DNA of 64,000 nucleotides from an uncultured bacterium (GCA_937863565.1 CALMGJ010000029.1:10991-74990), one strand, 5' to 3'; positions 40,838 through 61,603 are shown, numbered from the stretch's first letter. The notes: a model not told the origin generated them from the sequence alone. Made by a program: numbers and translations.

Positions 40838-41269
40838 TTAAACGGGTTCACCGTTGAGGTGGATCTCATACTCCACCTTCGCTGTTTTAGAAAGTACGGC
40901 GTTCACCGAGCAATATTTATCCATAGAGAGCTCCACCGCTCGTCTGGCCGACTGGGGTTTGATCTCTCCGGAAATCCGGAAGACGATCTTGATCCTCGTG
41001 TATACGCGGGGATGCTCTTCAGCTCTTTCCGTTTCGAGTACCTCCGCCTCGAAATGTTCCAGCTTTTCCCTTTTTTTCTCTATTATGGAGATTATATCGA
41101 TGCCGGAACACCCCATCACGGCAAAGAGCAGCAGTTCCATCGGTGTAGGGGCTACCCCGTTTTTTGTATCCATGACTACCGCCTGTTTTCTGTCATTCTC
41201 GGCAATGAACGAATAGCCTTTTCCGGTCCATTGGACTTTTGATATCATTCTCAACTCCTTTTTTCCCAT
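40838..41269 (-). CDS. OsmC/Ohr family protein
   Basis: MGCSG...DKYCSV shows the paired OsmC cysteines, and the size is 143 aa. Confidence 0.8.
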   Translation of the reverse strand: MGKKELRMISKVQWTGKGYSFIAENDRKQAVVMDTKNGVAPTPMELLLFAVMGCSGIDIISIIEKKREKLEHFEAEVLETERAEEHPRVYTRIKIVFRISGEIKPQSARRAVELSMDKYCSVNAVLSKTAKVEYEIHLNGEPV

Positions 41270-42438
41270 TGAGATACCAGATCCCTCCCGTACCTTGAAA
41301 AAGGTTCCAGAACGGAGACTGATTCACTATCATCTGAAGCTTTTCCCATATCTATGGGTATATCCTTCAGTTTTTCCGCGAATTCCGCGTAATATTCGTG
41401 TTCGCTGAAATACTTCCCGATCTTTTTATCCTCTCCCCTTATCCGGTCGAGCGATAGACCGCTTTTAAGGAGATGCAGAACGCGGCTCAATATATGCGGC
41501 GACATCTTTTTAAACATATCGGCCCTTTTCAGAACATCAGCCTCCGAAAGCCGTTCCGCTCTTCCTTGAATAACTTTTCCCGATATCCGGTCAGAGGGCA
41601 TTTCATATGAAGAGACCTTCTCGGAGATCTCGCACGTATTGAGATAATACTCATCCGGGAATCCCAGAGAGAACATCTCTTCGGACGTTTTCAGATAGAA
41701 GCCGCTGTTGGGGAACCTGAATCCGGAGAAACTCCCGAAACGCGTGGATATAAGAAGTTCATGAACCAGTGCGTCCTCTTTATCCAGGTAATGAGCGTCT
41801 TGGGCGGCAATGACCTTTTTATTGTATTTTTTACCAAGCTCAACAAGAAGAGAAAAGGCCCTATCCTCTTCAGGCACATTGTGCCTGGCAACCTCCAGAT
41901 AGAAATCGTCACCGAACATTTGTTGGTATATATCGAAATATTTACCTGCTGTGTTGTCTTTACCAATATACAACATATACGGAATTATTCCGTAATAACA
42001 AGCACTTGTGATAATTATATTATCTTTATACTTATCCAATAGTTTGATATCCAATAATCCGCGGCCTAGATTCGCTCGTTTCGAAAAGTAGTAATTGAAT
42101 TCATGCGAATCATTATGCATGCGCACCAGGTTCTTAAGACCATCGCTGTTTTTTGCAATGACGATCAGATGATACCGCGTATTATCTCCACGGGCTATGC
42201 TCTCCGCCGCATCTTCGACAAAGTAGAACTCGCTGCCGAATATCGCCTTTACTCCCGTGACCGCTGCCGCCTTGATCGCGGCAGGTATTGAATACAATGA
42301 ATCATGATCGGTGAGGCATACGGCTTTTTGTCCGGTATTCGAGACCTTTTTAAAAAGAGGGTCCGGTTTAATGATGCCGTCCGAAAAAGAACCTTCCGTA
42401 TGAGTATGGATATGAACAAAATCCGCTTTCCCGGGCAT
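41251..42438 (-). CDS. PHP-domain phosphoesterase (Pol III alpha-type PHP) with a ~150-aa C-terminal extension
   Basis: FVHIHTHTEGSFSDGI is the PHP HxH...D motif. Further conserved His/Asp follow (DHDSL..., ...AQDAHY). Confidence 0.65.
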   Translation of the reverse strand: MPGKADFVHIHTHTEGSFSDGIIKPDPLFKKVSNTGQKAVCLTDHDSLYSIPAAIKAAAVTGVKAIFGSEFYFVEDAAESIARGDNTRYHLIVIAKNSDGLKNLVRMHNDSHEFNYYFSKRANLGRGLLDIKLLDKYKDNIIITSACYYGIIPYMLYIGKDNTAGKYFDIYQQMFGDDFYLEVARHNVPEEDRAFSLLVELGKKYNKKVIAAQDAHYLDKEDALVHELLISTRFGSFSGFRFPNSGFYLKTSEEMFSLGFPDEYYLNTCEISEKVSSYEMPSDRISGKVIQGRAERLSEADVLKRADMFKKMSPHILSRVLHLLKSGLSLDRIRGEDKKIGKYFSEHEYYAEFAEKLKDIPIDMGKASDDSESVSVLEPFSRYGRDLVSQWEKRS

Positions 42439-42764
42439 TACAGCGAAATAAACACCGCTTCCGGCGGCAATTCCTTCAAGATCCCGTACACCTCGTCCGC
42501 GGCAAGTGCGGCTTTTTTCTTCTTGAACTGGATGATGATGACATACTTATTGGCTGAGATCTCCTTTATTTCCAGTTGAACTGGATTGATCAACGGATAT
42601 GAGATCTCATTTATCTCGATGATGCCTGTGAACAGTTTCTTCTGCCCGGGATAAGGCAGTACCGTTTCCGGATACCTGAAAACATTGAACACGGAAGCAG
42701 GTTCAAGCGCGAATTTCGTGTTCTCTATCGAGAACACCATATAGTTTTTATCATCCGACGCCAT
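42438..42764 (-). CDS. Short CheW-like domain protein
   Basis: The pattern F.I....FALE...V..V......LPYPGQ...F.GIIEI...SYPLINP ... VIIIQFKKKKAALAADEVYGI follows the CheW consensus (compare VIVV..GGR.VGLLVDEV.EV). It overlaps the pilT stop by 14 nt. Confidence 0.55.
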   Translation of the reverse strand: MASDDKNYMVFSIENTKFALEPASVFNVFRYPETVLPYPGQKKLFTGIIEINEISYPLINPVQLEIKEISANKYVIIIQFKKKKAALAADEVYGILKELPPEAVFISL

Positions 42765-44001
42765 AGTGCTTGAACAGTTCCCTCAGTTCGTCTTTGTTCA
42801 TAGTATTCGCTAATGCCTCACTTTTTGTGATCTTTCCTGCCTTTACCGACACGGCAAGACACTCGTTCATGGTTTGCATCTTGAACTGTTTACCCGTCTG
42901 CATCGAGGAATATATCTGGTGCAGCTTATCCTCTCTTATCATTGCCCTTACCGCTGCATTCGGCACAAGAACTTCGGCTACGAGCACGCGTCCGGTCCCG
43001 GAAGCTTTGGGCAGCAGCATCTGGGTCATAACACCCTGGAGAACGAAGGAGAGCTGTGTTCTGATCTGGGACTGCTGATGGGCGGGGAAAACGTCGATCA
43101 TTCTGTTTATTGATTCGATCGCGCTGTTCGTGTGCAGGGTTGCAAAAACAAGGTGGCCGGTTTCAGCGATTGTGATAGCCGCGCCTATCGTCTCGAGGTC
43201 TCTCATTTCACCGATCATTATAACGTCAGGGTCTTCTCTGAGCACATATTTCAGGGCTGTAGGAAAACTGTCCGTATCCTCGCCTATCTGCCTTTGATTA
43301 ATGATGGATAACCTATGATTGTGGATGTATTCGATCGGGTCTTCTATGGTGATGATATGGTGCGGTTTGTGTTTGTTTATGTAATCGATCATGGATGCAA
43401 GGGTCGTTGACTTGCCGGAACCCGTAGGGCCTGTGACGAGAACGAGACCTTTCGGGAGCTCGACGAAATCATCCACGGCAGGAGGAAGGGCAAGTTTCTT
43501 GAAATCCAGGATATCGTACGGGATCGTTCTCATCGCGCACGCGATAGCCCCGCGCTGTTTGAACATATTTGCCCTGAACCTCGAAAGCCCCTTTATACCG
43601 AAAGAGAAATCCAACTCGTTATTCTGCTCGAAATCTTTCTTTTGCTTGTCCTTAAGAACGGAATAGGTCAGCTGCTGCACCTTATCCGCAGTGAGGGGCA
43701 AATACTGGTACATCCTGAACACTTTACCGTCCAGCCTGGCGCACGGCTGAGAGCCGACCGTCAAATGAAGGTCCGAAGAGCCGCTGTGGAACATCTCAGA
43801 CAGAAGTTTTTTCAAACTCATATTGTTCGTATTCCTCTGAAGGTCCTCCGGAGAAAGCGATACTTTATTCTGGTCTCTGATAAAATAGATCTTCCTTTCC
43901 CCTACTGTTTCATAAGCTATGATCTCACCGCCGCCGGCCTGCTGGCCGCCTTCTTCCTTGACCGGTGCTTCTTCTTTTTGGAACTCATCGAAAATTCCCA
44001 T
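42751..44001 (-). CDS. pilT: Type IV pilus retraction ATPase PilT (with a ~70-aa N-terminal extension)
   Basis: The Walker A is LVLVTGPTGSGKSTT. PilT-type motifs are present (IEDPIEY..., VIMIGEMRDLETI, ATGHLVFATLHTNSA). Confidence 0.85.
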   Translation of the reverse strand: MGIFDEFQKEEAPVKEEGGQQAGGGEIIAYETVGERKIYFIRDQNKVSLSPEDLQRNTNNMSLKKLLSEMFHSGSSDLHLTVGSQPCARLDGKVFRMYQYLPLTADKVQQLTYSVLKDKQKKDFEQNNELDFSFGIKGLSRFRANMFKQRGAIACAMRTIPYDILDFKKLALPPAVDDFVELPKGLVLVTGPTGSGKSTTLASMIDYINKHKPHHIITIEDPIEYIHNHRLSIINQRQIGEDTDSFPTALKYVLREDPDVIMIGEMRDLETIGAAITIAETGHLVFATLHTNSAIESINRMIDVFPAHQQSQIRTQLSFVLQGVMTQMLLPKASGTGRVLVAEVLVPNAAVRAMIREDKLHQIYSSMQTGKQFKMQTMNECLAVSVKAGKITKSEALANTMNKDELRELFKHYGVG

Positions 44002-44004
44002 GTG

Positions 44005-44829
44005 TCACTCCTTTTTAAGTTTATATATCTTGTCCCTGTTGGAGACTATCTCGAACTTGGTCTTACCGTCCGTAAAGATCGTCTCCACTCTTCCCAGAAC
44101 AAGGAACCCGTCCGGTTTTATAAAGCGGGCGAGCATGTCGAGCATTTTGTTCTGAAGGGCTCTGTCAAAATAGATGAAGACATTCCTGCACAGGATGATG
44201 TCGAACTTGAAATCCCAGTTCGCATCGTGAAGGTTCTCAACTTTGAAGCGCGTAACTCTTTGCATCTTGTCCATTATCCTGTAGATATTCTTGCCTTTCT
44301 CCGTGTAGAGTTCGAAGATCTGTCTGAAGAACGCGGGGGTATTGAAAAGTGATTTTGGAGTATATGCCCCCTCCTGGGCGGTCTGTATCGATCTTCTGTC
44401 TATATCCGTCCCGTAAACGGTAAAATTATACCTGCACTTGTTGGCTTCCTTATAGTAATCGAGCATCATTGAGACGGAATACGCCTCTTCTCCGCTGGCG
44501 CACGCCGCCGACCATACTTTGATGTCCGGCACATGCCGGATAGCGGGGATAATCTTATTAAAGATATAGTCGAACGTATTCTCGTCCCTGAAGAATTTCG
44601 TCACATTTATCGTGACCGTATCGAACAAGTCCCGCCTTTCATTTTCGTTCTTTTTTAAAAAATCGATATAGTTCCTGATATCAGCGCTCCGCGAGAGCAG
44701 CATTCTTCTTTTTATCCTTCTTTCAAGGCAGGATAATTTATAATCGGAGAAATCAGCCCTGAAATGCTCTCTCAGGATAGAGAATATCTCTTCGATCTCG
44801 GATTTCGAGATGTCTTCAATCATGATCAT
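44005..44829 (-). CDS. cheR: Chemotaxis protein methyltransferase CheR
   Basis: TKFFRD and VWSAACASGEEAYS are present, together with the SAM-binding C-terminal domain. Confidence 0.9.
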   Translation of the reverse strand: MIMIEDISKSEIEEIFSILREHFRADFSDYKLSCLERRIKRRMLLSRSADIRNYIDFLKKNENERRDLFDTVTINVTKFFRDENTFDYIFNKIIPAIRHVPDIKVWSAACASGEEAYSVSMMLDYYKEANKCRYNFTVYGTDIDRRSIQTAQEGAYTPKSLFNTPAFFRQIFELYTEKGKNIYRIMDKMQRVTRFKVENLHDANWDFKFDIILCRNVFIYFDRALQNKMLDMLARFIKPDGFLVLGRVETIFTDGKTKFEIVSNRDKIYKLKKE

Positions 44830-46127
44830 TCCTTAATCGACTCAAGGTTTCTCTTGGCGATATTGTTGCCGGGTTCGATCTCCAGGGTTTTTTGCCACGC
44901 CTCCCTTGCAAGGGTTTTATTTCCTTCCTTCAGGTATATCGCACCCAATTTCAGATAGACGGCAGTATCCCGGGGATCGATCTCAAGGACCTTCTTATAA
45001 GTCTCCTGGGCATTTTTCATATCGCGCTGCCGGTAATGGTAACTGGCTTTCTCAAGAAGAAGGAGTGTATTTCGAGGTGACCGTTTAAGGCCTTCATCTA
45101 TATATTTAAGCGCATTATCGTCCTTTTTTATCCTGAACAGGATCCTTGAAAGGAGCAAATAATTGAAGGCTTCGGAAGGCTCTTCTTCAAGAAGCTTTTT
45201 TACGATATCAAGGGCTTCTTTAAGCTGCGCAAGGTAAATATGGCATACTGCTATATAATAGAATATTACTTTCCTGTCTGAGAAAAGGGCAAGCGTCTTC
45301 TTGAACTCCTCAAGGGCCTGAGTATAGAGGTGTTCCTTGAGGTAGTTGTATCCCTCCTTGAAATGTTCGCTGTCGCCTATAAGGGCTTCGACCTCCTGGG
45401 GGAATTCCTTCTTCAGTTCATCGTAATTTTCAGTTGTTTCCTGGAAGGCGATTGCGCCTTTCTTCTCGAGAGATTCGACTGTCTTCAGGGTGTTGAGAAG
45501 AGTATATTTGGCCTTTTTCAGAATATCGGCCATTTTTGAGCCTTCCTTGATCTCGGACAGAACTGTATATTCCGCATAATTGACAGGAATATGATCGTCC
45601 TTCTTTGTTACGGAACTGCGCAGATTATATCTTTTCAGGAACTCGTTCAATGCTTCGGAATACGAGATGGAATCCATAAGGAGGGCCTGGACATCGAGTT
45701 TGATCTTCATATGCTCGCTCATCTCCTTTTCTTCCAGCCGCTTGTAAATGAACTGTCCTTTCTCCACTCCCGATATCTCAAGGGCCAGCAGTTTCAACCT
45801 TTCTTTATGCATCTTCGCAAGATCTTCCTGTGTGATAACTTTCTTCTCGATATAGAATTTCAGAATATCTTCGTGCTTTTTATCCGAATTTATGATCTCC
45901 TTTATCTTCTCGAACGGTAGATTCCTGCCTATCAGAAGCAATTCGAGATCCGAATCATTGATGAAGTTCGTGCTTATGTCGGCAATATAGCCGTTCTGGA
46001 AATAGATGAAGTATTTCATCTGATCTAAATCTACTTCCAGAAGACCGCTTTTATTCGAGAAATAGAACAATTGATATATGGTCGGCAGATGTATAGTTGT
46101 AATGCTGCCTTGAAAAACCATTGTCAC
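44826..46127 (-). CDS. DUF4388-like N-terminal domain fused to C-terminal TPR repeats
   Basis: The N-terminus (GSITTIHLPTIYQLFYFSNKSGLLEVDLDQMKYFIYFQNGYIADIS) fits the DUF4388 pattern from memory. The C-terminal ~170 aa carry at least 4 TPR units. Confidence 0.5.
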   Translation of the reverse strand: MTMVFQGSITTIHLPTIYQLFYFSNKSGLLEVDLDQMKYFIYFQNGYIADISTNFINDSDLELLLIGRNLPFEKIKEIINSDKKHEDILKFYIEKKVITQEDLAKMHKERLKLLALEISGVEKGQFIYKRLEEKEMSEHMKIKLDVQALLMDSISYSEALNEFLKRYNLRSSVTKKDDHIPVNYAEYTVLSEIKEGSKMADILKKAKYTLLNTLKTVESLEKKGAIAFQETTENYDELKKEFPQEVEALIGDSEHFKEGYNYLKEHLYTQALEEFKKTLALFSDRKVIFYYIAVCHIYLAQLKEALDIVKKLLEEEPSEAFNYLLLSRILFRIKKDDNALKYIDEGLKRSPRNTLLLLEKASYHYRQRDMKNAQETYKKVLEIDPRDTAVYLKLGAIYLKEGNKTLAREAWQKTLEIEPGNNIAKRNLESIKE

Positions 46128-48040
46128 CTCCCCGTGGACCCTTCCAGACGTTTCACCCAGTCGCTGGCTTCCTTTATTCCCTTCTGGGCTTCTTTGATCT
46201 TGCCCTTATCGGTGCTGACTTTAATATACTCGTTCCACAATTCTATAGAATCCTTATACCATGATTTGTTGAAGAACACCTTTGCCAGATAGAACTTGGC
46301 ATCGAGGAAATCCTTGTTGAGTTCAAGCGTTTTCTTGTATTCCCATGCAGCCTCATCCCACCAGCCGAGATATGCGTAGACGCTGGCCAGATTGAAATGC
46401 GATACGGGATCATTGGCATCGAGTTGAATAGCCTTCGTGAACATCTTGATGGCGCTCTTGGGTTCCTTGTTCATCTGATAAAGCGCGCCGAGATTGACGA
46501 AGATCTCCTTTTCTTTATTTTCCTTTGAAAGAAGATCCTCGTAAATCTTGATGGCGTCCCGGATATTGCTTTCCTTCACAAATACATTGGCGAGTTTCAC
46601 TCGGTAGTTCTTATTAGAAGGATCTATGCTGATCGCTTCAAGAAGCAGTTTCTTGGCTTTTTCGTTATTGTTGAGTTGGCTGTACATCAATGCGAGCTCA
46701 AGATACAATTCCGGATTCTTCGGTTCGCTCTTCAATGCCTCCTGAAGGATATTCTGCGCCTCTGTCAGGTTTCCGCTGAGCCTGTATGCCTTGCCGAGTT
46801 TGATCTTGATGCCCTTCCTGTTAGGGTTCTTTTTGAGTATGTTAAGAAAAAGCTCTATCGTCCTTTTGTAATCGAACTCATCCATCAGGGCATCTGCGTA
46901 ATTCTCTATGCCCTCGAGGAACTGATTGTTAATCTTGAGCGCTTTTTCAAGAAGGCTCTTGCCCCTTTCCCTCTGGTTCTTCTTGAAAAGGATCAGACCT
47001 ATGAAGGAGATGGCATAGAAGTTCTCCGGTTCGATCTTGATGATATCTTCGAACATCTCAAGAGCTTTATCGAAACTCCCCTCCTCGAACTCTATTTTGG
47101 CCAGGTTCAGTTTGGCGTCTGCGTAATCCGGTTTGATCGCAGAGGCTTTCACAAGATATTCTTTCGCCCGGTCATCCTGCTTCAGGGCGTGATAGAGCAC
47201 GCCGAGATTATTAAGAATCGTTTCATTTTCCGGCTCCAGTTCCATTGCCTTCTCAAGATTCTCAATGGCAAGATTGAACTGTTTCTCCTTTATATATATT
47301 TTACCGAGGTTCAGATACGGTTCTGAAAAATCGGGGTCCAGGCTTATCGCCTCATGCAGTTTATCAACGGCTTCCTTGATCTTGTTGGTTGAAAGGAACA
47401 CATGCGCCATCGTATTGGCGACCTTCGCTTTTTCGGGATCCCTTTTCTGCTTGAGTACCTCTGCGTCCTCTTCATACATCTGCATGGCCTTCTCGTCGAT
47501 CGTGATCCTTTTAGTTTCGGCGAAGTTCGGATTTATTTGAATGGCGGTATTGTACTCTTCCTGTGCTTTATCGAAGAAACCTTTCTCTCCGTAAAGGAAA
47601 CTGAGATTATAGTGGGCAAGAGCGTTCTTGGGGTTCAGTTCTATGGCTTTTCTGAAGAGTTTCAGGGCATTGTCGTACATTCCCTGATGGTAGTATATCT
47701 CGCCAAGTGAATTAAAGGCGTCGTCCATGGAAGGGTTCTGTTTGACGACTTTCTTGAAATAGGATATCGCTTCCTCATAGGAGAAATTGTATTTCCCCCC
47801 TGATTCCTTGGCGAAGTCATAGCCGTCCTCCATTCCCTTTTTTATTACCTGGGCAAGGTTCTTCATTGCGAGCATATAATTAGGTTCAAGCTCCAATGCC
47901 TTCTGAAAAGAACCTATCGCGTCGATAAGAAGGCCCTTTCCGTAAAAGAATGCGCCGAGATTATTGAGGGAGGCCGGGGACGATTCATCTACCTTTTTTG
48001 CGATCTTTTTAAAAAATTCCTGTTTTTTGGAATCGTTCAT
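46124..48040 (-). CDS. TPR-repeat protein (more than 15 tandem TPR units), cytoplasmic
   Basis: A regular 34-aa A/Y/L-pattern periodicity runs throughout (..AISYFKKVVKQNPSMDDAFNSLGEIYYHQGMYDNALKLFRKAIELNPKN..). There is no signal peptide. Confidence 0.8.
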   Translation of the reverse strand: MNDSKKQEFFKKIAKKVDESSPASLNNLGAFFYGKGLLIDAIGSFQKALELEPNYMLAMKNLAQVIKKGMEDGYDFAKESGGKYNFSYEEAISYFKKVVKQNPSMDDAFNSLGEIYYHQGMYDNALKLFRKAIELNPKNALAHYNLSFLYGEKGFFDKAQEEYNTAIQINPNFAETKRITIDEKAMQMYEEDAEVLKQKRDPEKAKVANTMAHVFLSTNKIKEAVDKLHEAISLDPDFSEPYLNLGKIYIKEKQFNLAIENLEKAMELEPENETILNNLGVLYHALKQDDRAKEYLVKASAIKPDYADAKLNLAKIEFEEGSFDKALEMFEDIIKIEPENFYAISFIGLILFKKNQRERGKSLLEKALKINNQFLEGIENYADALMDEFDYKRTIELFLNILKKNPNRKGIKIKLGKAYRLSGNLTEAQNILQEALKSEPKNPELYLELALMYSQLNNNEKAKKLLLEAISIDPSNKNYRVKLANVFVKESNIRDAIKIYEDLLSKENKEKEIFVNLGALYQMNKEPKSAIKMFTKAIQLDANDPVSHFNLASVYAYLGWWDEAAWEYKKTLELNKDFLDAKFYLAKVFFNKSWYKDSIELWNEYIKVSTDKGKIKEAQKGIKEASDWVKRLEGSTGR

Positions 48041-48450
48041 CAGAAATCCAGTATCTTCTCCACGCTCAATATCATGATGGGGAAATCATTGATCTTGGAA
48101 AGTCCCAGTACAAAATCCTCCTCTATCTTGAATATGTTCTTGTTCTCGCTCTCTATATCCGGATCGTTGAAATTCACAACTTCCATCACCTCGTCGATGA
48201 AGAGGCCAAAGCGTTCCCCCCTTTGGGCGATGATGATGATATCATTATGCGGAGCCGGATTCTCCTTTATATTGAGGCGTTTTTTCAGGTCCAGAACGGT
48301 TATGATCTCCCCGCGCAGGTTCATCATCCCTTTTATAATCGGGCTTACGCCCGGGATGGTTCTGATCTTATATTCCTTCACGACTTCGATCACTTTCATT
48401 ATATCAAAACCGAAAAGTTGCCCGTTGAGTTTAAAGGATACGCATTTCAT
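48040..48450 (-). CDS. cheW: Chemotaxis coupling protein CheW
   Basis: A CheW domain is present in a 136-aa protein (...FGFDIMKVIEVV...IPGVSPIIKGMMNLRGEIITVLDL...). Confidence 0.85.
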   Translation of the reverse strand: MKCVSFKLNGQLFGFDIMKVIEVVKEYKIRTIPGVSPIIKGMMNLRGEIITVLDLKKRLNIKENPAPHNDIIIIAQRGERFGLFIDEVMEVVNFNDPDIESENKNIFKIEEDFVLGLSKINDFPIMILSVEKILDF

Positions 48451-48453
48451 TTC

Positions 48454-49053
48454 CTATACCAATCCCAGTTTATTGAAGATCATATTCATTCCGTTCTCGA
48501 ACGGGACGAGCATGAAGAACGGATTGAATTCCATTTTTGCGTCAACCAGATTTGTCTTTATTATAAGGATCTCCTCGGAGCTCTGCGGGTCTTTCTCGAT
48601 GGAGTTCCTAATGATCTCATCCGTTTTCCCCGAATACAAAGACGGAACGGATGGTATCATGAGCAAATTCAGCATATCACCCATTGAACCCAGATAATTG
48701 GCCGTTAAGATATTGCCTACTTCCTGAAGGGTGGAGATCACAGTATCGTTGAGCTCAGCCGTGGGACTATCGGCCCTTCCCATTATCCTGTCAACCAGGC
48801 GGAAGCCCTCCTGCATCTCAATGAAGAACAGGTTCTTTCCCGTGATCTCTCCAAGTATCATGAACTCGACGGCAATGAAATCGGCTTTGGAGGGAAAGGA
48901 ACTTATTATCTGTTCTTTCTTGACCACGCAGGATACGGGCACTTGAATGTGTATTTCACGTTTTATCAATTGCGAAAGAGCAGTGGCGGCGTGACCGGCA
49001 CCGATATTCCCGAGTTCCTTCAAGGCATCCAGCTGAATATTGTTAAGTTTCAT
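48454..49053 (-). CDS. cheC: CheY-P phosphatase CheC
   Basis: DALKELGNIGAGHAATALSQL is the CheC/FliY signature. Confidence 0.8.
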   Translation of the reverse strand: MKLNNIQLDALKELGNIGAGHAATALSQLIKREIHIQVPVSCVVKKEQIISSFPSKADFIAVEFMILGEITGKNLFFIEMQEGFRLVDRIMGRADSPTAELNDTVISTLQEVGNILTANYLGSMGDMLNLLMIPSVPSLYSGKTDEIIRNSIEKDPQSSEEILIIKTNLVDAKMEFNPFFMLVPFENGMNMIFNKLGLV

Positions 49054-49057
49054 CCTT

Positions 49058-51025
49058 TTACTCCAGTATCGAGGCGATGTCGATTATAAGAGCGGGGTCT
49101 CCGTTGGAGAGCAGCCCTTTGCCTGAATATATCTTGTTCTTCTTTAATATGGAATCAAGGCTTTTAATGACCGTTTGCTGCTTGGAATGGAGTTCGTCGA
49201 AGACCAGACCCGCTTTCTTCTCTCCAAGTTCTACGAAAACGACCGGAAAAACAGGAGCGGTTCTCCTGGGCAGGCCCAAGACCTCGTTCATTCGTATGAG
49301 CGGAACGACTTCCTCGTCCCGGAGGAAGATCACCTCCCTGTTCTTCACGATCTTGATCTTTTCCTCGGTCATCTCCATTGTTTCCTGGATATTCGCGATC
49401 GGAATGAGGAATTTATTATCCCCTATCGAAACGATGAGGGTCTGGATGATGGCCAGCGTCATGGGAAGGATCATCGAGAAAACAGAACCCCGGCCGTCGT
49501 CCGATTCTATGTTCAGAACACCATTGAGAGAATCTATCTTGGTCTTCACCACGTCCATGCCTACACCGCGGCCCGAGACATCGGTAACGTTCTCTGAAGT
49601 GGAGAATCCGGGTTTGCAGATGAGCATAAGAATGTCAGAGCGGCCCAATGTTCCGAGTTTCTCCTTGGTAACAATATCCATCTTAAGGGCCTTGGATTTG
49701 ATCTTCTCTATGTTGAGCCCCTTGCCGTCATCCTTGACCTCTATGATAACGCGGTTCTTTTCTCTTTTTGCGTTCAGCTCTATGGTACCTGTTTCCGGTT
49801 TACCCGCTTTCTTCCTCTCTTCGGGACTCTCAACGCCGTGATCCACGGAGTTCCTGAGAAGATGTATGAGCGGCTGATCGATCTCATCCAGGATCACGCG
49901 GTCAAGTTCGATCTCCGAACCGGAGATCATGAAATTGATCTTTTTATTGAGTTTCCTGGACAGGTCGCGGACTATCCTGGGATATTTATTGAATATCTGC
50001 CCTACCGGCACCATTCTCGCAAGGAGGATACGGTCCTGAAGCGATGAGGTGATCCTCTGGAAATTCACGATCTCGTCCTTAAGAGGTTTGATCTCGTATT
50101 CCATGCCGATGCCTTCAAGGCGTATCGTGTTGATGATAAGTTCTCCTATCAGATTAACCAGAATGTCCAGATGGGAGATCTTGACCTTGATGGTGGGTTC
50201 GATCACGGTCTCTGTCGCAGCGGCTTTACCTTGGGGCTCCGCAATATCCGGAACAGGGACCGGAGTATCGTATTTTACTTCATATTTGAACGGATGCATC
50301 GTGACCTTGTCGATCTCCCTTAAAGAAGAGATGACCTGCAGAATGCTGTTGGGATCTTCTTTGGCGATGATGAATACGAAGAATTCCCTGAGCGTATCAT
50401 CCTCCTCTAATCTGGAATGTTCGGGAAGAGTCGTGACTATCTCTCCGGCCTCCCTGAATTTCTGAAGAACCTGAAAAGCTCTGACGGAAGGCATCGGGGC
50501 TGCTTCGGAGATTCTTATATGGAACACATGGGGTTGACGGCCGTCTTTCAAAGCCTGGCCTAAACGCGCTTCATCCGCTTCCCCTAGAACGAGTTTGGGA
50601 CCGGCCGCTTTCTTTGAGGGTTCCGTAGAGCCGCCGCCTTTGGAAAGAGAGATGAGGAATTCCCTTATATGGTCTGCCGTTGCGGTTTTTTTCGATGTCT
50701 CTTTCCCTTTTGAAGCGACCTCGTCTATCCTGCTTTTCAGTTCGTCGATCCATTTGTAAACACGGTCATAGCCCTCTAGGTCCAGCATTGCTTCGCCTTT
50801 TTTGATCTTATTGAATACATCTTCCAGAGCATGAGAGAGTTCGGAGATATTCGTGAAATTCATAGCAGCTGCCATACCTTTAAGCGTATGCATGTTCCTG
50901 AATATCATTTCAACGCTTTCATTGATATCTTTTCCGTTCTCTATATTCAGAAGGCAATTATTGATGCCTTCAAGATATTCATAGGCCTCGTTTAAGAACA
51001 TCTCAAGATATTTTTTGTCTTCCAT
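49058..51025 (-). CDS. cheA: Chemotaxis histidine kinase CheA
   Basis: The Hpt domain carries HTLKG. The dimerisation and HATPase_c domains are present (HLLRNSVDHG...GRGVGMDVV), as is the C-terminal CheW-like domain. Confidence 0.9.
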   Translation of the reverse strand: MEDKKYLEMFLNEAYEYLEGINNCLLNIENGKDINESVEMIFRNMHTLKGMAAAMNFTNISELSHALEDVFNKIKKGEAMLDLEGYDRVYKWIDELKSRIDEVASKGKETSKKTATADHIREFLISLSKGGGSTEPSKKAAGPKLVLGEADEARLGQALKDGRQPHVFHIRISEAAPMPSVRAFQVLQKFREAGEIVTTLPEHSRLEEDDTLREFFVFIIAKEDPNSILQVISSLREIDKVTMHPFKYEVKYDTPVPVPDIAEPQGKAAATETVIEPTIKVKISHLDILVNLIGELIINTIRLEGIGMEYEIKPLKDEIVNFQRITSSLQDRILLARMVPVGQIFNKYPRIVRDLSRKLNKKINFMISGSEIELDRVILDEIDQPLIHLLRNSVDHGVESPEERKKAGKPETGTIELNAKREKNRVIIEVKDDGKGLNIEKIKSKALKMDIVTKEKLGTLGRSDILMLICKPGFSTSENVTDVSGRGVGMDVVKTKIDSLNGVLNIESDDGRGSVFSMILPMTLAIIQTLIVSIGDNKFLIPIANIQETMEMTEEKIKIVKNREVIFLRDEEVVPLIRMNEVLGLPRRTAPVFPVVFVELGEKKAGLVFDELHSKQQTVIKSLDSILKKNKIYSGKGLLSNGDPALIIDIASILE

Positions 51026-51027
51026 AA

Positions 51028-52059
51028 TTATCTTCTGAAGAAATCCTCGATGACGCCGGGCATCTCCTCAAGCGGAAGTTGCCAATCATAATGCCCCGCA
51101 TTGAAAATGGAACCCGGCATACCCCAAATAAAAGCGGATTCCTTGCTTTGAATGATGATCTTGCCGCCGGCACGTCTTATAAAGGCAGCTCCCTGAGTTC
51201 CGTCCCTTCCCATGCCTGTCAGAACGAGCCCTAGCGTATTTTCCTTGAATACCTGGGCAACGCTGTCGAAAAGGTAATCGGCGGCAGGACGCACTCCCCA
51301 CAGAGGCGGATCCTTGGAAAGCGAGGCATATGGCTGACCGCCTTTGCTTTTTACTTTGAAATGGAGGTCCCCTTTCCCGATATACACCGTGGAGGGACTT
51401 AATCTTTCATCCTGCTCCACTTCCTTAACTGGCAGATCGGAGAGTTTATCCATTCTGAGCGCAAAGCTTTTGGTGAAAGTCTGAGGCATATGCTGAACGA
51501 TGAATACGAACCCCCCGAGTTTTGCCGGTAAGGCCGGAATGAGCTTTTCAAGGGCTTTCGGGCCTCCTGTTGAAGAGGCTATCGCAATACACTTCCCGCT
51601 GACGCTTTCTATGTTCTCGATCTTCCTTATCTTGTTCTCGTTAACTTTCTTTATCGTATCGACTGAGATCTTTGATATCTCCTTCAGTTTCTCAACTATC
51701 TCGAATTTTATAAGCCTGATATTCGGGGAGATCACACCCGAAGGTTTCTGCAGGAAATCAACAGCCCCGTTCTTAAGTGCCTGAAGCGTCGGTGTTGCAT
51801 CATCAGAAGCAAATGCGCTTAAGATGACTATTTTGGAAGGATTCTTCTCCATGATAAGATGGGTTGCTTCAATGCCGTCCAAAATAGGCATCTCTATGTC
51901 CATGGTCACGATGTCCGGCCTGAGAAGGTCATTTAGCTCGACCGCCTCCTTGCCGTTTTTAGCAGTTCCGACAACAGAAAAATCGGGATCCGATTCAATG
52001 ATCTCCTTAATAATGTTCCTCATTAAGGCGGAATCGTCGACCACAAGTACTTTTATCAT
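51028..52059 (-). CDS. cheB: Chemotaxis response regulator protein-glutamate methylesterase CheB
   Basis: An N-terminal REC domain (VLVVDDSALMR...MDIEMP) precedes the methylesterase domain (ASSTGGPKAL...). Confidence 0.9.
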   Translation of the reverse strand: MIKVLVVDDSALMRNIIKEIIESDPDFSVVGTAKNGKEAVELNDLLRPDIVTMDIEMPILDGIEATHLIMEKNPSKIVILSAFASDDATPTLQALKNGAVDFLQKPSGVISPNIRLIKFEIVEKLKEISKISVDTIKKVNENKIRKIENIESVSGKCIAIASSTGGPKALEKLIPALPAKLGGFVFIVQHMPQTFTKSFALRMDKLSDLPVKEVEQDERLSPSTVYIGKGDLHFKVKSKGGQPYASLSKDPPLWGVRPAADYLFDSVAQVFKENTLGLVLTGMGRDGTQGAAFIRRAGGKIIIQSKESAFIWGMPGSIFNAGHYDWQLPLEEMPGVIEDFFRR

Positions 52060-52547
52060 AGGATCACAATGGGCTTATTTATGCTTATCACCTTGACTTT
52101 TCCGGAGGATACTTCGAATTCGATCGTCCTTCCGTAGTCCTCGCCGACCATCTCCCCGAGAAGAGGTATGCGCTGCTTTTTAAGTTCATCCTTCACTGCG
52201 GCAATATTCCTTTTTCCAATATCCATCCCCTCCTTTTCGGTCTCAAAAGAGAACATCTTGGCGCCGCCGAAGATCTTTGCCTGGAAATTGATGATATCGC
52301 CGCCGGCCATGATAAGTTGAGAGATCATCTCGCGGATGGCCGTATCCGCGTATTTCCCCTTCTTAATATCCTTGCTTTTTGATACTTCAGCAGTAGGGAG
52401 CATGACATGAGCGAGGCCGCCGAGTTTCTTCTCGGGATCGTAGATCGTAACGCCTACACACGATCCCAAACCGTAAGTGACAAGGGTCATGTTCTCGGGA
52501 CCGATGGCGAATTCGCCCATCCCTACCTTGACCTTGTTCTTATCCAA
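52056..52547 (-). CDS. cheD: Chemoreceptor glutamine deamidase CheD
   Basis: GLGSCVGVTIYDP is the CheD catalytic Cys motif, and the size is 163 aa. Confidence 0.85.
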   Translation of the reverse strand: MDKNKVKVGMGEFAIGPENMTLVTYGLGSCVGVTIYDPEKKLGGLAHVMLPTAEVSKSKDIKKGKYADTAIREMISQLIMAGGDIINFQAKIFGGAKMFSFETEKEGMDIGKRNIAAVKDELKKQRIPLLGEMVGEDYGRTIEFEVSSGKVKVISINKPIVIL

Positions 52548-52548
52548 A

Positions 52549-53175
52549 TCAGCTTTCTCCCTTAATATGAGCGAAGATGTTCTTCAGCGAGATCTCGTCC
52601 GGTATGAAGATAATGTCGAAAAGGATCTCATTGCCATGGCTGAGAAATTTATTCTTCAGAAGAAGCAGTTCGTTAGAACCCTCTGCGGATTCTATGCAGA
52701 ATTCATCTATTATGCTCTCAAGGATATCGTGCTTGATCTGCGGCGGAGATTGGAGCAGGGAAGCGTTTATCATCATGCTCATAGCGTTAACATAAGATGA
52801 AATGATTATATTCCCTATCTCCATCAGCATGGATTTAAATATCTCCTGTTCCGGGGAATCGAAATCTATTTTATCGACCTTAGATGAGATCAGCGTCTTG
52901 GCGATCTTCATGGACTCCTCTTCGGAGAAGATGATGAGGAATTTCGCAGGAAAAGCACCCGAAAGATATGAGAATATGACTACTTTGGAGGATTCAGGCT
53001 CGCCCAGATTCTCCGGCATCTCCTCAGGCAGGATTACATCAAGAGATGGAACAAGTATGCTTATCGTCGTCTTTAGGATCGCCGAGAGCGATGTAGCCGC
53101 ATTACCTGTCCCTATCGTACAGAGTTCCTTCAGAAGGTCCTTGTCAAAAGGGGTCAGGTCCTTGTAAAAACCCAT
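52549..53175 (-). CDS. Second CheC-like (CheC/CheX family) phosphatase
   Basis: LKELCTIGTGNAATSLSAIL is a CheC-type motif, and the size is 208 aa. Confidence 0.7.
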   Translation of the reverse strand: MGFYKDLTPFDKDLLKELCTIGTGNAATSLSAILKTTISILVPSLDVILPEEMPENLGEPESSKVVIFSYLSGAFPAKFLIIFSEEESMKIAKTLISSKVDKIDFDSPEQEIFKSMLMEIGNIIISSYVNAMSMMINASLLQSPPQIKHDILESIIDEFCIESAEGSNELLLLKNKFLSHGNEILFDIIFIPDEISLKNIFAHIKGES

Positions 53176-53177
53176 TC

Positions 53178-53555
53178 CTAACCCTCAAGTATCCTTGAGA
53201 TCGCCTCTATGACGGCCGATGGTTGGAAAGGTTTAACGACGAAATCTTTTGCACCGGCCTGTATCGCCTCTATGACCAGAGCCTTCTGGCCCATCGCAGA
53301 ACACATCAATATCTTGGCATTCGGATCCGTTTTCACAATGGCTTTAACGGCTTCGATGCCCCCCATTTCCGGCATCACTATATCCATCGTGATCAGGTCC
53401 GGTTTAAGCCTCTGGAACTTTTCCACAGCCTCTTTTCCCGTTCCGGCTTCACCAACGACTTCGAAGCCGTTCTTTTCAAGAATGTCCCTGATCATCGTGC
53501 GCATGAATATAGCATCATCCGCAATCAGCACCTTAATCTTCTTGTCATTATCCAT
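53178..53555 (-). CDS. cheY: Single-domain response regulator CheY
   Basis: The REC domain has the DD pair, the phospho-Asp (ITMDIVMP), T/S and K (VVKPF). Confidence 0.9.
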   Translation of the reverse strand: MDNDKKIKVLIADDAIFMRTMIRDILEKNGFEVVGEAGTGKEAVEKFQRLKPDLITMDIVMPEMGGIEAVKAIVKTDPNAKILMCSAMGQKALVIEAIQAGAKDFVVKPFQPSAVIEAISRILEG

Positions 53556-53568
53556 ACCGTAACCTCCC

Positions 53569-54312
53569 TTATTCCGTTATGTTTACAAAAGACAACTTCT
53601 CCTCTTCCGAGAAAAGGTTGTCCAGATTAATTATCGAGATAATACGCTCATCGCCGTTTTTAACGAATTTTATTATCTTGTACAGGTAATCGTTAAGCCC
53701 GGTTATCATTATCGGAGGATCGAACAATTTTAGCTTGCTCAGATAGACGACCTCCATGATCTTTTTCGTTAAAATGCAGACCTTGCGCCCTTCAAGCATT
53801 GTGATCAACCCGAAATGCTTGGCGATCTCATCCGCAAGGCCGAGTTTCCTTTCGATATTTATTACGGGAAGCATCTCCCCTCTGAGATTGTATATTCCTT
53901 CAACATAATCCTCGGCATTCGATATGGGATTAATCTTTTCCACGATCACGATCTCAATGATATTCAGGATATTAATGGCGAACTCCTTGTCCGCTATTAA
54001 GAACGATATCACTTCCTCTATACCGGTCTTACGCTCCTCCTGAGGCATCTCCCGCGAAACCGTCTCAGAAGACTCTTCCTTTATTGTTATTTGCGAGGCC
54101 GTTTCCTTCGCCGTATTTTGCGAAGCCGCTTCCTTCGCCGTATTTTGCGAAGCCGCTTCCTTCGTGTCTATCTGGTAAGCAATTTCTTTCTTCTCTTCTT
54201 TTGGCTCTTCTTTAAGAGTTAAGGGAACGGCGCCCGTTTCGGGGGCGGGTACTTTGATCTGTTTTTTCCCGTCCTTTTTTATCTTGAAGAAATTGTACTT
54301 CTTCTTATTCAT
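53569..54312 (-). CDS. CheW-like protein with a low-complexity N-terminal region containing 9-aa tandem repeats
   Basis: A C-terminal CheW domain is present (FLIADKEFAINILNIIEIV...GIYNLRGEMLPVINI...). The N-terminal ~90 aa are K/E-rich and contain KEAASQNTA repeated three times. Confidence 0.75.
   Translation of the reverse strand: MNKKKYNFFKIKKDGKKQIKVPAPETGAVPLTLKEEPKEEKKEIAYQIDTKEAASQNTAKEAASQNTAKETASQITIKEESSETVSREMPQEERKTGIEEVISFLIADKEFAINILNIIEIVIVEKINPISNAEDYVEGIYNLRGEMLPVINIERKLGLADEIAKHFGLITMLEGRKVCILTKKIMEVVYLSKLKLFDPPIMITGLNDYLYKIIKFVKNGDERIISIINLDNLFSEEEKLSFVNITE
54091..54171. repeat. In-frame 27-bp tandem repeat (3 copies) inside the CheW-like gene
   Basis: The plus-strand units are ttgcgaggccgtttccttcgccgtatt, ttgcgaagccgcttccttcgccgtatt and ttgcgaagccgcttccttcgtgtctat. 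They encode the QNTAKEAAS repeats on the minus strand. Confidence 0.85.
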
Positions 54313-54757
54313 TGGCTTCCAGCTTGATCAGCTTGTCGTTCATCGTTTTCAGCCTTTCGCTCAATTTTTTAGTGATATTAAGGAGTATCTTTAAAGCGAT
54401 CCCGGGTTCCTTTGTGATTATATCATTGAAGACCTTCCTTGTGATCAGAAGAAGGTTGGAATCTATGCTGATCTTAGCCGTAGCGGAACGGTAGTCATCG
54501 TCTATAAGAGATAATTCCCCCATATAGTCGCCCTTTGAGATGGATATAAGGAAAGTATCCTCGCCTGCCTTGTTTTTTTTGTAAAGATCTATCTTCCCGT
54601 CAAGGATAACATAGAGAATACCTCCCTGCATACCCTCGAAAAATAGTGTAAACCCTTTTTTATATTCTTTCGTAAAGGCAAGCTGGAGAACTTTTTCCAG
54701 GTCTCCCTGGGAAAGATTTTTAAAAAGTGGGACTTGCATTAATGTTTTATAATCCAT
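54305..54757 (-). CDS. Cyclic-nucleotide-binding domain protein (CAP-family cNMP-binding domain only, no HTH)
   Basis: The 150-aa protein has the cNMP-binding fold pattern FFEGMQGGILYVILDGKIDLY...GDYMGELSLID.... Confidence 0.75.
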   Translation of the reverse strand: MDYKTLMQVPLFKNLSQGDLEKVLQLAFTKEYKKGFTLFFEGMQGGILYVILDGKIDLYKKNKAGEDTFLISISKGDYMGELSLIDDDYRSATAKISIDSNLLLITRKVFNDIITKEPGIALKILLNITKKLSERLKTMNDKLIKLEANE

Positions 54758-54814
54758 TTGTTAATCCATCTATTTATTTTACTAAATTTTATAGGTTTTT
54801 TCAAGCGAAACCCG

Positions 54815-55918
54815 CTATATTTCAATGATTTCGTATTTTCTGCTCCCAAGGCCTATCGTTTGCCCGTGCTGTAACTGGATCTCGCCTCGGAGTTCTTCCC
54901 TCAGAGCTTTGAATTTATCCGTTCCTTTGCCAATATTTCCTGGAAGGGATGAAGCCGGATTGCCTGGAGCATCGTTAACCATGTCCAAAGAGGCCGAATC
55001 CAAGGCGACCGGGTCATTTGAAGCCAGAAAACCGATATCGTGAACGATCGGGACATCGCTCCAGCCGGCACAATCGCAGTCCGGGCTAATATTCACAAGA
55101 AAGTTCATATATGAGGCTTTGGCCGCCTTATCTTTTACGGCGCCGAGGGCGTATTCGGCAAGACGTTCACAGAAATCGCCGGGGTCCGTTCTCCAGTCCA
55201 TATATATTGCAGAAGCCGGACATACGGTCATGCACTCGCCGCAGCCGGTGCAAAGGTCCTGCTTAATAACCGCCTTTCCGTCTCCGATTAAAGATACCGC
55301 TCCTTCCGGGCAATGACGTACACATTCGCCGCACCCTGCGCACTTTGATTCTTTCACCTTGGCTTTTGTGCCATGCTGGTCCTTTTTGCCGGCCGCGGGG
55401 CTGCAACCCATCGACAGGTTTTTAATGGCACCGCCGAAACCCGCAAGCATGTGGCCTTTGAAGTGCGAGAGGGTTATCATAGCGTCCGCATCGAGGATGT
55501 CTCCCGCGATCTTGACTTTCTTAAAATGTTTCTTCCCTATCTCCACTTCCCTGAAATTTCTGCTTCTGACACCGTCCGCGATGATAACAGGCGCGCGCAC
55601 TACGGAATAAGTGAATCCGTGTTCGATCGCGGTTACGATATGTTCCGGCGAATTATGCCTTTTGCCGCTATACAGAGTGTTGGTATCGCAGATGAAAGGA
55701 ATGCCGCCCTGGGCGATGACCTCATCTACCACGGCCCTTACTAAAATGGGGCTTATAAAAGTATCGTTCCCGTATTCCCCGAAATGCAGTTTGATCGCAA
55801 CAAGATCACCCTTCTCTATAGACGGTGAGCATACTTTTTGATAAAGCCTTTTGATCTTCTGGATCTTATTGTCCTTCGCTCCATGTGAGCGTACGTTTGA
55901 AAAATACACTTTGCTCAT
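54815..55918 (-). CDS. DUF362-type iron-sulfur protein with two 4Fe-4S ferredoxin motifs
   Basis: CAGCGECVRHCP and CTGCGECMTVCP are the ferredoxin motifs. The flanking sequence is DUF362-like. Confidence 0.7.
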   Translation of the reverse strand: MSKVYFSNVRSHGAKDNKIQKIKRLYQKVCSPSIEKGDLVAIKLHFGEYGNDTFISPILVRAVVDEVIAQGGIPFICDTNTLYSGKRHNSPEHIVTAIEHGFTYSVVRAPVIIADGVRSRNFREVEIGKKHFKKVKIAGDILDADAMITLSHFKGHMLAGFGGAIKNLSMGCSPAAGKKDQHGTKAKVKESKCAGCGECVRHCPEGAVSLIGDGKAVIKQDLCTGCGECMTVCPASAIYMDWRTDPGDFCERLAEYALGAVKDKAAKASYMNFLVNISPDCDCAGWSDVPIVHDIGFLASNDPVALDSASLDMVNDAPGNPASSLPGNIGKGTDKFKALREELRGEIQLQHGQTIGLGSRKYEIIEI

Positions 55919-57006: not shown

Positions 57007-57035
57007 TTCCTTTTTCTGTAAATTTATTCACATAC

Positions 57036-61536: not shown

Positions 61537-61603
61537 GAATATTTATTCAACTCTGAATATCTATTCAATTCTGAATATCTATTCAATTCTGAATATCTCA
61601 TTG
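61537..61603. repeat. 18-bp direct tandem repeat (3 full copies plus a degenerate copy) spanning the 3' end of gene 61579..62688 and the intergenic region upstream of gene 59774..61498
   Basis: The full copies are ctctgaatatctattcaa (61551-61568), ttctgaatatctattcaa (61569-61586) and ttctgaatatctcattg (61587-61603). A degenerate copy ggaatatttattcaa precedes them. The last copy encodes the C-terminal EIFRIE of the lipoprotein. Confidence 0.8.

Follow-up and report, generated by a model that had tools for sequence, protein, structure and literature searches.

A 64,000-nucleotide stretch of DNA from an uncultured bacterium (GCA_937863565.1 CALMGJ010000029.1:10991-74990), referred to here as the window, contains a chemosensory gene cluster in which genes for Che proteins are interleaved with genes for a stand-alone cyclic nucleotide (cNMP)-binding protein, two tetratricopeptide repeat (TPR) proteins, a PilT-family ATPase and a PHP phosphoesterase. 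The cluster consists of 17 consecutive open reading frames (ORFs) that fill positions 55918-40838 of the minus strand. Its gene content was listed in an initial annotation made from the DNA sequence alone, and Pfam analysis verified every stated domain and upheld all 17 assignments. This includes the two CheC-type and three CheW-type genes, the third of which encodes a truncated protein of 108 aa. We give somewhat better than even weight to the reading that the cluster encodes an F1-derived chemosensory pathway that has been rewired to type IV pili (T4P) instead of the flagellum in a small clade of uncultured bacteria. A literature search retrieved no description of an operon that combines che genes and pilT with the PATAN domain that is present in one of the two TPR proteins.

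Organization and boundaries of the cluster

Spacing between adjoining genes in the cluster ranges from a 19-nt overlap (-19) to a 57-nt gap (+57). The genes that do not encode Che proteins are interleaved among the che genes, with junctions that either overlap or are separated by 1-4 nt. For example, the start of cheR overlaps the PATAN-TPR gene by 4 nt and the gene for CheW3s, the short CheW-like protein, has its start in a 14-nt overlap with the end of pilT. These junctions indicate translational coupling between operon genes and, together with the conserved synteny described below, the spacing substantiates the single tightly packed gene string that was originally described. A convincing transmembrane segment is present in none of the 17 products.

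The only sizeable gap, of 57 nt, sets a gene for a DUF362 + 2x[4Fe-4S] protein (54815-55918; PF04015, 181 bits) apart from the gene for the cNMP-binding protein. Located in this gap, 5' of the cNMP gene, is a promoter-like site, TTGAAA-17-TAAAAT (54776-54804, minus strand; a consensus match only), that is likely to mark the start of the conserved operon, in agreement with the synteny, which in all relatives starts from the cNMP gene. Membership of the DUF362 protein in the system was considered and rejected since a homologue is absent from all related loci, and this same-strand upstream gene is probably not part of the system. At the other end, the PHP gene (41251-42438) is overlapped by 19 nt by a gene for an OsmC-like protein (40838-41269; PF02566), which is followed 190 nt downstream by minus-strand genes for an S-adenosylmethionine (SAM)-methyltransferase (39781-40647) and a GGDEF-PilZ protein (38660-39784; Pfam). 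The 190-nt gap carries its own promoter-like site. The GGDEF motif and RESD I-site of the GGDEF-PilZ protein are intact, and the two genes may constitute a cyclic di-GMP accessory module; a hidden receiver in the N-terminus of the GGDEF-PilZ protein was considered and has no Pfam support. The succession of OsmC, methyltransferase and GGDEF-PilZ is common only to the window and a pair of related loci, L005/L007, where the GGDEF-PilZ protein is 51% and the methyltransferase 41-42% identical to that of the window. There is no GGDEF-PilZ gene downstream of the L001/L006 cluster. The operon was initially drawn from DUF362 to OsmC; the portion of it from the cNMP gene to the PHP gene is conserved, while DUF362 is found in no relative and OsmC only in L005/L007.

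Conservation of the cluster in close relatives

Related loci were found through the closest CheA homologues (58-66% identity) and by a genome scan with an alignment of TPR638, the larger of the two TPR proteins. The close-relative loci (L005/L007, L001(=L006)/L004, L002(=L008)/L003, L009 and the partial L010) all come from unclassified metagenome-assembled genomes (MAGs) of marine sediment, seep or vent origin. Besides the source of the window, the cluster is found in the MAGs JAGLWT01, JAGLGN01, JAUXGM01, CAYVPX01, JAGGYO01 and DAOVMD01. A block of 15 genes, in the order cNMP-CheW1-CheY-CheC1-CheD-CheB-CheA-CheC2-CheW2-TPR638-PATAN/TPR-CheR-PilT-CheW3s-PHP, shows strict collinearity in five additional species-level lineages of MAGs, or at least six when the window is included, with L010 being partial. 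The cNMP gene opens and the PHP gene closes this strictly conserved block, and PHP is kept as its final gene in all close relatives. The block proteins are 27-90% identical to those of the window and the flanking genes differ between loci. An arrangement that stays collinear while its flanks change is not a matter of chance.

Conservation is highest for CheY (84-90% identity to the window protein), with values of 65-73% for PilT, 61-70% for the cNMP-binding protein (CNB), 60-67% for TPR638, 57-63% for CheA, 43-48% for PHP, 37-48% for PATAN-TPR and 27-33% for CheW3s. TPR638 is as well conserved as CheA and PilT, which is unusual for a TPR protein. A metagenome scan with the TPR638 alignment detected only generic TPR proteins of less than 45% identity, none of which is encoded near che genes, and in a word-indexed search with TPR638 the orthologues did not appear among an excess of generic TPR proteins.

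CheA class and more distant relatives

CheA (49058-51025) exhibits a canonical five-domain P1-P5 architecture (Hpt-P2-dimerisation-HATPase-CheW by Pfam) with a single Hpt domain, a P2 domain, no receiver and the phospho-histidine motif HTLKG. Beyond its own clade, its best named matches are from Firmicutes and Archaea. The protein scores 510 bits with the CheA_Halo model versus 317 bits with the E. coli model, and its P3-P5 core scores 317-320 bits against T. maritima versus 251 bits against E. coli. Core identity is 45-50% to CheAs from Firmicutes, Thermotogae and Archaea and 37% to the F7 CheA of E. coli. Based on these Firmicutes, archaeal and Thermotoga matches, CheA is F1-like and the system would be of F1 ancestry, a class call based on best matches and a neighbor-joining tree (P3-P5 core, 375 columns). 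CheA is accompanied by CheC, CheD, CheB and CheR, which is an F1-type gene set, and the best-matching models for CheY and for the two CheC proteins are haloarchaeal and Thermotogales ones. In the tree, CheA forms its own subclade, with a core identity of 42-55% to anything outside its own species group. Bootstrap values are 100/100 for the window clade, 95/100 when P0008/P0009 are added, and 63/100 for the subsequent addition of a group of 540-aa CheAs that lack P2.

The P0009 CheA, which is 42% identical to that of the window, is encoded at L055/L056 (L055 1-10627 and L056 1-6345) in a MAG labelled Candidatus Dependentiae. The gene order at these loci is CheW(long N-extension)-CheY-CheC-CheD-CheB-CheA-CheC-CheW-TPR634-PATAN/TPR-CheR, and CNB, PilT, CheW3s and PHP are absent. 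Comparison of L055 with the window gives identities of 82% for CheY, 42% for CheA, 40% for TPR634 over its full length and 27% for PATAN-TPR. Retention of CheY at 82% where CheA has fallen to 42% reveals an unusually strong constraint on CheY. The conservation of TPR638 at 60-67% and of CheY at 82-90% points to constrained protein-protein interfaces. From this comparison, the ancestral core of the subclade appears to consist of TPR638, PATAN-TPR and a che set of the F1 type, to which the window clade would then have added CNB, PilT, CheW3s and PHP as a package.

The group of 540-aa CheAs (P0023, P0034; loci L057, L058 and L062) is distinguished by che genes that lie directly 3' of, and on the same strand as, pilus genes coding for prepilins, a PilM-PilN fusion, PilO and the PilQ secretin. 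These loci (L057 38-13397, L058 and L062 1-15919) represent an apparently undescribed cluster type that is also without an MCP (methyl-accepting chemotaxis protein) gene. Its order is prepilins, PilM-PilN fusion, PilO, PilQ and then CheW-CheR-CheY-CheB-CheA(no P2)-712-aa FtsA/PilM-like actin-fold protein-CheC-CheC-CheD-CheY. In the next group out, from Desulfobacteraceae (L060/L061), the cluster is conventional and an MCP gene is situated between cheR and cheW.

The initial annotation had raised the question of whether CheA falls in the Tfp class or the alternative cellular function (ACF) class, and had held that a conventional flagellar-class CheA would speak against a pilus-directed pathway. 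The kinase proved to be a conventional five-domain F1-like protein with neither a Tfp nor an ACF architecture. A conventional CheA is uninformative as to output in this case, given the pilus-linked genomic surroundings in which this F1-like subclade is found.

The architecture of CheA also bears on the idea that the cluster is an ACF-like pathway with a second-messenger or exopolysaccharide output exerted through the downstream GGDEF-PilZ protein, with PilT being secondary. In both the window and L005/L007, the operon is indeed followed by genes for a GGDEF-PilZ protein with an intact active site and I-site and for the methyltransferase, HD-GYP, cyclase and exopolysaccharide genes are present in the neighborhood, and an association of TPRs with CheR is typical of ACF pathways (PMC3447774). 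However, CheA is neither a hybrid nor a multi-Hpt kinase, and apart from CheB there is just one response regulator, the single-domain CheY. The GGDEF-PilZ protein itself has no receiver domain, is encoded behind the 190-nt gap with its own promoter-like site, and is missing downstream of the L001/L006 cluster. We consider an output of this type improbable.

The PilT ATPase and its putative adaptors

PilT (42751-44001; T2SSE family) was correctly identified in the initial annotation as a genuine member of the PilT family, as it scores 485 bits with TIGR01420 versus a cutoff of 319 and is closer to PilT than to PilU. Scores with PilB, GspE and FlaI models are far below the respective cutoffs. 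Its best matches among solved structures are PilT retraction ATPases, with Geobacter PilT4 (6ojx) at 1e-138 and scores of 466 bits for PilT versus 278 bits for the solved PilU. The Walker A motif GPTGSGKS is present, as is AVRAMIRE, a motif of the AIRNLIRE type. The protein is atypical in having an N-terminal extension of ~55-60 aa in which the motifs M[GA][IF]FD and G[KR]x[IV][YF]F are kept among orthologues.

The PATAN-TPR protein (44826-46127; 433 aa, or 431 aa from the ATG at 46121) matches PF14332 (DUF4388) over residues 6-154 (62 bits, E 7e-17, cutoff 25), with TPR repeats making up its C-terminal half. DUF4388 is the PATAN (PatA N-terminal) domain and the orthologues of this protein are annotated as PatA_N. 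There is no Response_reg match, so the protein has no fused receiver. The N-terminal half is very divergent, with just 27 matches among 1.84e9 representatives, 25 of which match DUF4388; TPRs occur in six of these 27 detectable relatives and a receiver in two. A word-indexed search for homologues of the PATAN half yielded no protein other than the query, and no solved structure matches this half by sequence. PATAN from Synechocystis, when present on its own, localizes to the membrane, reverses T4P-based phototaxis and binds the N-terminal part of PilB1 as well as PilC's N-terminal domain (bioRxiv 10.1101/2021.06.11.447907). By analogy, the window protein is a putative coupler of the pathway to the pilus motor.

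TPR638 (46124-48040; 638 aa) consists entirely of TPRs, with TPR families covering approximately residues 85-571 and termini that are TPR-like by alignment, and it has no transmembrane segment. Large TPR proteins have precedent in T4P control in the form of SgmX, a TPR activator (PMC7519303, PMC7668184), and there is a further precedent in the TPR domain of the FrzF CheR (PMC3447774).

Two additional members of the block may be relevant to nucleotide signals. The stand-alone cNMP_binding protein of 150 aa (54305-54757; PF00027, 60.5 bits) has an intact phosphate-binding cassette, GELSLIDDDYRSA (GELSL...RSA). The PHP protein (PF02811, 115 bits) stands alone and is homologous to the N-terminal ~275-370 residues of DnaE, the alpha subunit of DNA polymerase III, a region that includes the PHP domain and the start of the palm (TIGR00594, 181 bits, model positions 1-273). 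Metal-ligand motifs are visible in its sequence and appear to be intact.

Chemotaxis proteins of the cluster

CheY (53178-53555; PF00072, 110 bits) is a single-domain response regulator in which the phospho-acceptor residues DD/D/S/K are present. Its conservation exceeds that of all other cluster proteins, and its best NCBIfam model is CheY_Halo. CheC1 (52549-53175; PF04509; CheC_Thermotogales 118 bits) is CheC-like, with the second of two active-site motifs intact and the first not. CheC2 (48454-49053; PF04509, 78 bits; CheC_Thermotogales 120 bits) has both active-site motifs intact (D/SxxxExxN(22)P x2) and is predicted to be a CheY-P phosphatase. CheD (52056-52547; PF03975, 113 bits) retains its catalytic Cys (GLGSC) and His (HVMLP) motifs and by these motifs would be a receptor deamidase and CheC partner. 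CheB (51028-52059; PF01339, 188 bits, plus PF00072) combines a methylesterase and a receiver with the Ser/His/Asp catalytic-triad motifs STGG, QHMP and GMGRDG intact. CheR (44005-44829; 274 aa; PF01739, 152 bits, plus PF03705) has FFR(D) and SAM-binding motifs. It is a prototypal CheR_N+CheR protein without a CheR-TPR fusion, the TPRs residing instead on the product of the overlapping PATAN-TPR gene just upstream.

Both full CheW proteins keep their receptor-binding motifs. CheW2 (48040-48450; 136 aa; PF01584, 102 bits) is canonical with an NLRG (receptor-binding) motif. CheW1 (53569-54312; 247 aa; PF01584, 82 bits, residues 100-237) contains a 100-aa N-terminal extension with a conserved basic motif, KxKYN[FY]FKI, that is followed by a variable acidic and Lys-rich linker. 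The linker differs in length and sequence between species while the basic N-terminal motif is kept, and a long basic/acidic extension is also present on the CheW1 homologue of L056. The disordered linker of the window protein is encoded in part by an in-frame tandem repeat (54090-54164) of 2.8 copies of 27 nt with 95% identity, which gives rise to three KEAASQNTA repeats. CheW3s (42438-42764; 108 aa) spans the first two-thirds of the CheW fold with its NLRG motif replaced. Its match to PF01584 (31 bits; 22-31 bits when orthologues at 22-28 bits are included) covers positions 2-92 of 138, and hhalign versus CheW gives a probability of 90.6% (E 1.3e-6, CheW columns 9-101 of 158). By these alignments, CheW3s appears to be a truncated CheW-like protein and not a complete two-subdomain CheW.

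The receptor question

No MCP signalling domain is present in the 64-kb window, as determined by Pfam on all large ORFs and by tblastn with an MCP consensus and E. coli Tar, and the observation to this effect in the initial annotation is confirmed. MCPs were also absent from 13 related loci of the 15-member CheA subclade (L001-L005, L007, L009, L010, L055-L058 and L062) by tblastn and by Pfam analysis of gene calls. The absence had been taken to suggest an MCP-less pathway with cyclic nucleotide and/or the TPR or DUF4388 scaffold proteins as its sensory input, and this interpretation is not supported by the analysis. Many F1 che operons are without MCP genes, and cognate MCPs of F1 systems are typically of the 44H heptad class. 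To our knowledge, MCP signalling domains are the sole substrates or partners of CheR, CheB, CheD and CheW2-type proteins, and no case in which CheA is activated in the absence of an MCP is known to us. The intact motifs of CheR, CheB, CheD and CheW thus imply a methyl-accepting receptor substrate and, when combined with the presence of an MCP in the next-nearest clusters, make receptors that are encoded elsewhere more likely than a receptor-less system. MCP genes are, in addition, normally dispersed (PMC2577667). As regards the input, the cNMP gene is missing from the distant L056 version of the cluster and would therefore be accessory rather than a core input.

The claim that the two TPR genes occupy a receptor position finds a weak parallel. 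They lie between cheW and cheR, and L060/L061 have an MCP gene at a like position, but the correspondence is positional only. The related suggestion that the TPR proteins conceal an MCP-like four-helix bundle was rejected as these proteins are TPR repeats end to end with no similarity to MCPsignal or Tar; since TPR638 is TPR throughout, there is no room in it for such a bundle. An invariant Glu-Glu stretch, KAQEEYNTAI, was considered as a methylation site and was also rejected as it is an ordinary TPR helix-B consensus.

A complex that functions independently of receptors would have TPR638 and PATAN-TPR replace the MCP as a scaffold, and possibly as a methylation substrate, with cyclic nucleotide or the state of the pilus motor as input. 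The absence of an MCP from both the window and the 13 related loci, in contrast to the next sister clusters where an MCP is encoded in-cluster between cheR and cheW, would be in keeping with this, as would the location of the TPR638 and PATAN-TPR genes between cheW and cheR and the unusual conservation of TPR638. Additionally, a complex could be anchored at the membrane by the basic N-terminus of CheW1, with no need for a transmembrane receptor. Nevertheless, all catalytic motifs of CheR, CheB and CheD and the receptor-binding motif of CheW2 are kept, which argues otherwise, as do the usual dispersal of MCP genes (PMC2577667), the end-to-end TPR structure of TPR638 and the absence of the CNB gene from L056, so that CNB cannot be the core input. 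On balance, such a complex seems to us quite unlikely. Slightly less probable again is a truly receptor-less version in which TPR638 and PATAN-TPR would scaffold CheA and CheW in a cytoplasmic complex, perhaps tethered by CheW1, that reads pilus-motor load or state or cyclic nucleotide, with CheR, CheB and CheD modifying a non-MCP substrate. A receptor-less pathway, if true, would be the first MCP-independent CheA signalling array.

Type IV pili as the proposed output of the pathway

There are three independent links between this system and T4P, namely the PATAN domain, the in-operon PilT, and the sister clusters that are joined to pilin/pilMN/pilO/pilQ operons. Furthermore, the ORFs that were scanned in the 64-kb window and in related loci yielded no flagellar gene. 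Taken together, these observations make a pilus-directed output, as had been proposed initially, the best-supported reading.

Several points weigh against this conclusion. There is no pilus structural or assembly gene (pilA/B/C/M-Q) in the 64-kb window, F1-class systems normally drive flagella or archaella, and a flagellar regulon may lie outside of the window, or the genome may be without T4P genes. The link of the CheA clade to the pilMN-pilO-pilQ-adjacent group has a bootstrap value of only 63/100, and the L055 version of the cluster is without PilT, which places PilT outside of the ancestral core. An AlphaFold2 model of PATAN-TPR made from a single sequence is not usable, with a predicted local distance difference test value of 51. 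In Synechocystis, a two-hybrid assay of PATAN with PilT1 was negative, and the characterized partners of PATAN are only PilB and PilC (bioRxiv 10.1101/2021.06.11.447907). Finally, we infer all protein-protein steps downstream of CheY from gene neighborhood.

A rival explanation is an ordinary F1 operon that drives a flagellum encoded elsewhere, with PilT, PATAN-TPR, TPR638, CNB and PHP being merely co-located or co-regulated, for example to coordinate swimming with surface behavior. The architecture and best matches of CheA are those of flagellar/archaellar F1 systems, CheC, CheD and the P2 domain are typical of this class, and our evidence is confined to the window and related loci. Yet the genes in question are interleaved among the che genes at the same positions in at least six lineages while the flanks change, and TPR638 and PATAN-TPR persist where CheA identity has dropped to 42%. 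Moreover, sister clusters are located behind pilin, pilMN, pilO and pilQ genes, and a flagellar gene is seen in none of the examined loci. We judge a flagellar output with incidental pilus genes to be rather unlikely, although clearly less so than the ACF-like and receptor-less schemes discussed above.

In the pilus-directed pathway that we favor, chemoreceptors encoded elsewhere would form arrays with CheA and with CheW2 (and CheW1), and CheA would phosphorylate CheY. Receptor adaptation would be carried out by CheR, CheB and CheD, while CheC1, CheC2 and CheD would end the signal and tie it to receptor state. CheY-P, or the array itself, would then work via two cytoplasmic adaptors, PATAN-TPR and TPR638. 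The former would be functionally equivalent to a PatA-type regulator from which the receiver has been split off as CheY, and the latter would be a large TPR platform with a role comparable to that of Myxococcus SgmX. In the window clade, the in-operon PilT paralogue would be the controlled motor, with its N-terminal peptide motifs being candidate TPR ligands. CheW3s, whose gene shows translational coupling to pilT, is a candidate for tethering the motor to the signalling complex. CNB, with its intact cNMP pocket, and PHP, both gained along with PilT and CheW3s, would most likely add modulation by cyclic nucleotide.

Other genes in the window

The neighborhood of the che operon is dense in second-messenger genes, including the GGDEF-PilZ gene at 38660-39784. 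For example, an HD-GYP(HD_5)-TPR protein of 609 aa is encoded at 33133-34962 (minus strand), a cyclase-STAND(NACHT/AAA_16)-TPR protein of 1189 aa at 26855-30424 (minus strand), and a class III cyclase-like ORF of 198 aa at 56008-56604 (plus strand), divergent from the DUF362 gene. The small cyclase-like ORF adjoins a gene (56721-58511, plus strand) for a membrane histidine kinase that contains HATPase_c and roughly three hydrophobic segments. The listed GTG start of the kinase gene is probably too far upstream, and the che clusters of relatives do not have it as a conserved neighbor. An exopolysaccharide/capsule locus at 4046-22241 codes for a Wzz/GNVR tyrosine-kinase-type co-polymerase, GT1/GT2/GT4 glycosyltransferases, a Wzy_C ligase/polymerase and a DUF4015 glycosyl hydrolase, and several of its ORFs are without a Pfam match. 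Long ORFs without a Pfam family at E<=1e-5 are located at 35023-37221 (-), 59774-61498 (-), 61579-62688 (-) and 6177-9708 (+), with sizes of 732, 574, 369, 415, 410 and 355 aa. A class A penicillin-binding protein and a PASTA protein encoded in the window indicate that the DNA is bacterial. No Rfam families or tRNAs were found in the window.

Comparison with known chemosensory systems

Chemosensory control of T4P is known from one dedicated class (Pil-Chp and cyanobacterial Tax) and from Frz. If the pathway described here operates as proposed, then a flagellar/archaellar-type F1 pathway has been recruited to pili independently, via a PATAN adaptor, a TPR platform and one clade's own PilT. This would make PATAN a general pilus-motor plug outside of cyanobacteria and would place control at the retraction rather than the extension ATPase. 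It would also provide a natural example of che modules that have been rewired between motility machines, with compact candidate interfaces between CheY and PATAN-TPR, TPR638 and the PilT N-terminal peptide, and CheW3s and PilT.

Pil-Chp of P. aeruginosa is similar in being a CheA/CheW/CheY/CheR/CheB-type pathway that controls T4P function and polarity, with response regulators that, as a feature of Pil-Chp, act on extension and retraction ATPases. Pil-Chp contains an in-cluster MCP (PilJ) and two CheY-like regulators (PilG and PilH) with no CheC, CheD or PATAN. In contrast, the window cluster has one CheY, two CheC proteins, CheD, PATAN-TPR, TPR638 and an in-operon pilT with no in-cluster MCP. 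The kinases also differ, as the Tfp-class CheA (ChpA) carries several Hpt domains and a C-terminal receiver but lacks P2 (PMC10782961), whereas the window CheA has canonical P1-P5 and not a Tfp architecture.

In the cyanobacterial Tax/Pix systems (PatA-type, PATAN-REC), as would be the case here, PATAN couples a chemotaxis-like pathway to the T4P motor. The photoreceptor-MCP PixJ, the kinase PixL and the regulators are reported to share the Tax1 system (PMC11181946). The cyanobacterial PATAN is fused to a receiver while that of the window is fused to TPRs with the receiver being a separate CheY, and the documented PATAN partners are PilB1 and PilC rather than PilT.

The Frz->MglA->SgmX->PilB pathway of Myxococcus xanthus likewise involves chemosensory T4P control through a large cytoplasmic TPR protein, and in FrzF there are TPR repeats associated with the CheR methyltransferase. 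The MglA/MglB GTPase module is not seen at the window cluster, where the TPRs are on separate proteins, unlike the CheR-fused FrzF. TPR638 is likened to SgmX by role and not by demonstrated specific homology. In the Frz system, FrzE combines CheA and a receiver in a hybrid protein, and the MCP FrzCD is encoded in-cluster.

The L057/L058/L062 loci contain the closest CheA group outside of the TPR/PATAN clusters (~50% core identity) and share with the window two CheC proteins, CheD, the absence of an MCP and a T4P link. They differ in having a CheA without P2, a second CheY and an FtsA/PilM-like protein, with no TPR638, PATAN-TPR, PilT, CNB or PHP. The F1 systems of Thermotoga maritima, Bacillus subtilis and Archaea resemble the window cluster in their five-domain CheA with P2 along with CheC, CheD, CheB and CheR, but they drive flagella or archaella and their operons are without PilT, PATAN-TPR, a 638-aa TPR protein, CNB and PHP. 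A pilus output from a cluster with such an F1-like kinase would mean that class labels derived from CheA sequence do not always predict output.

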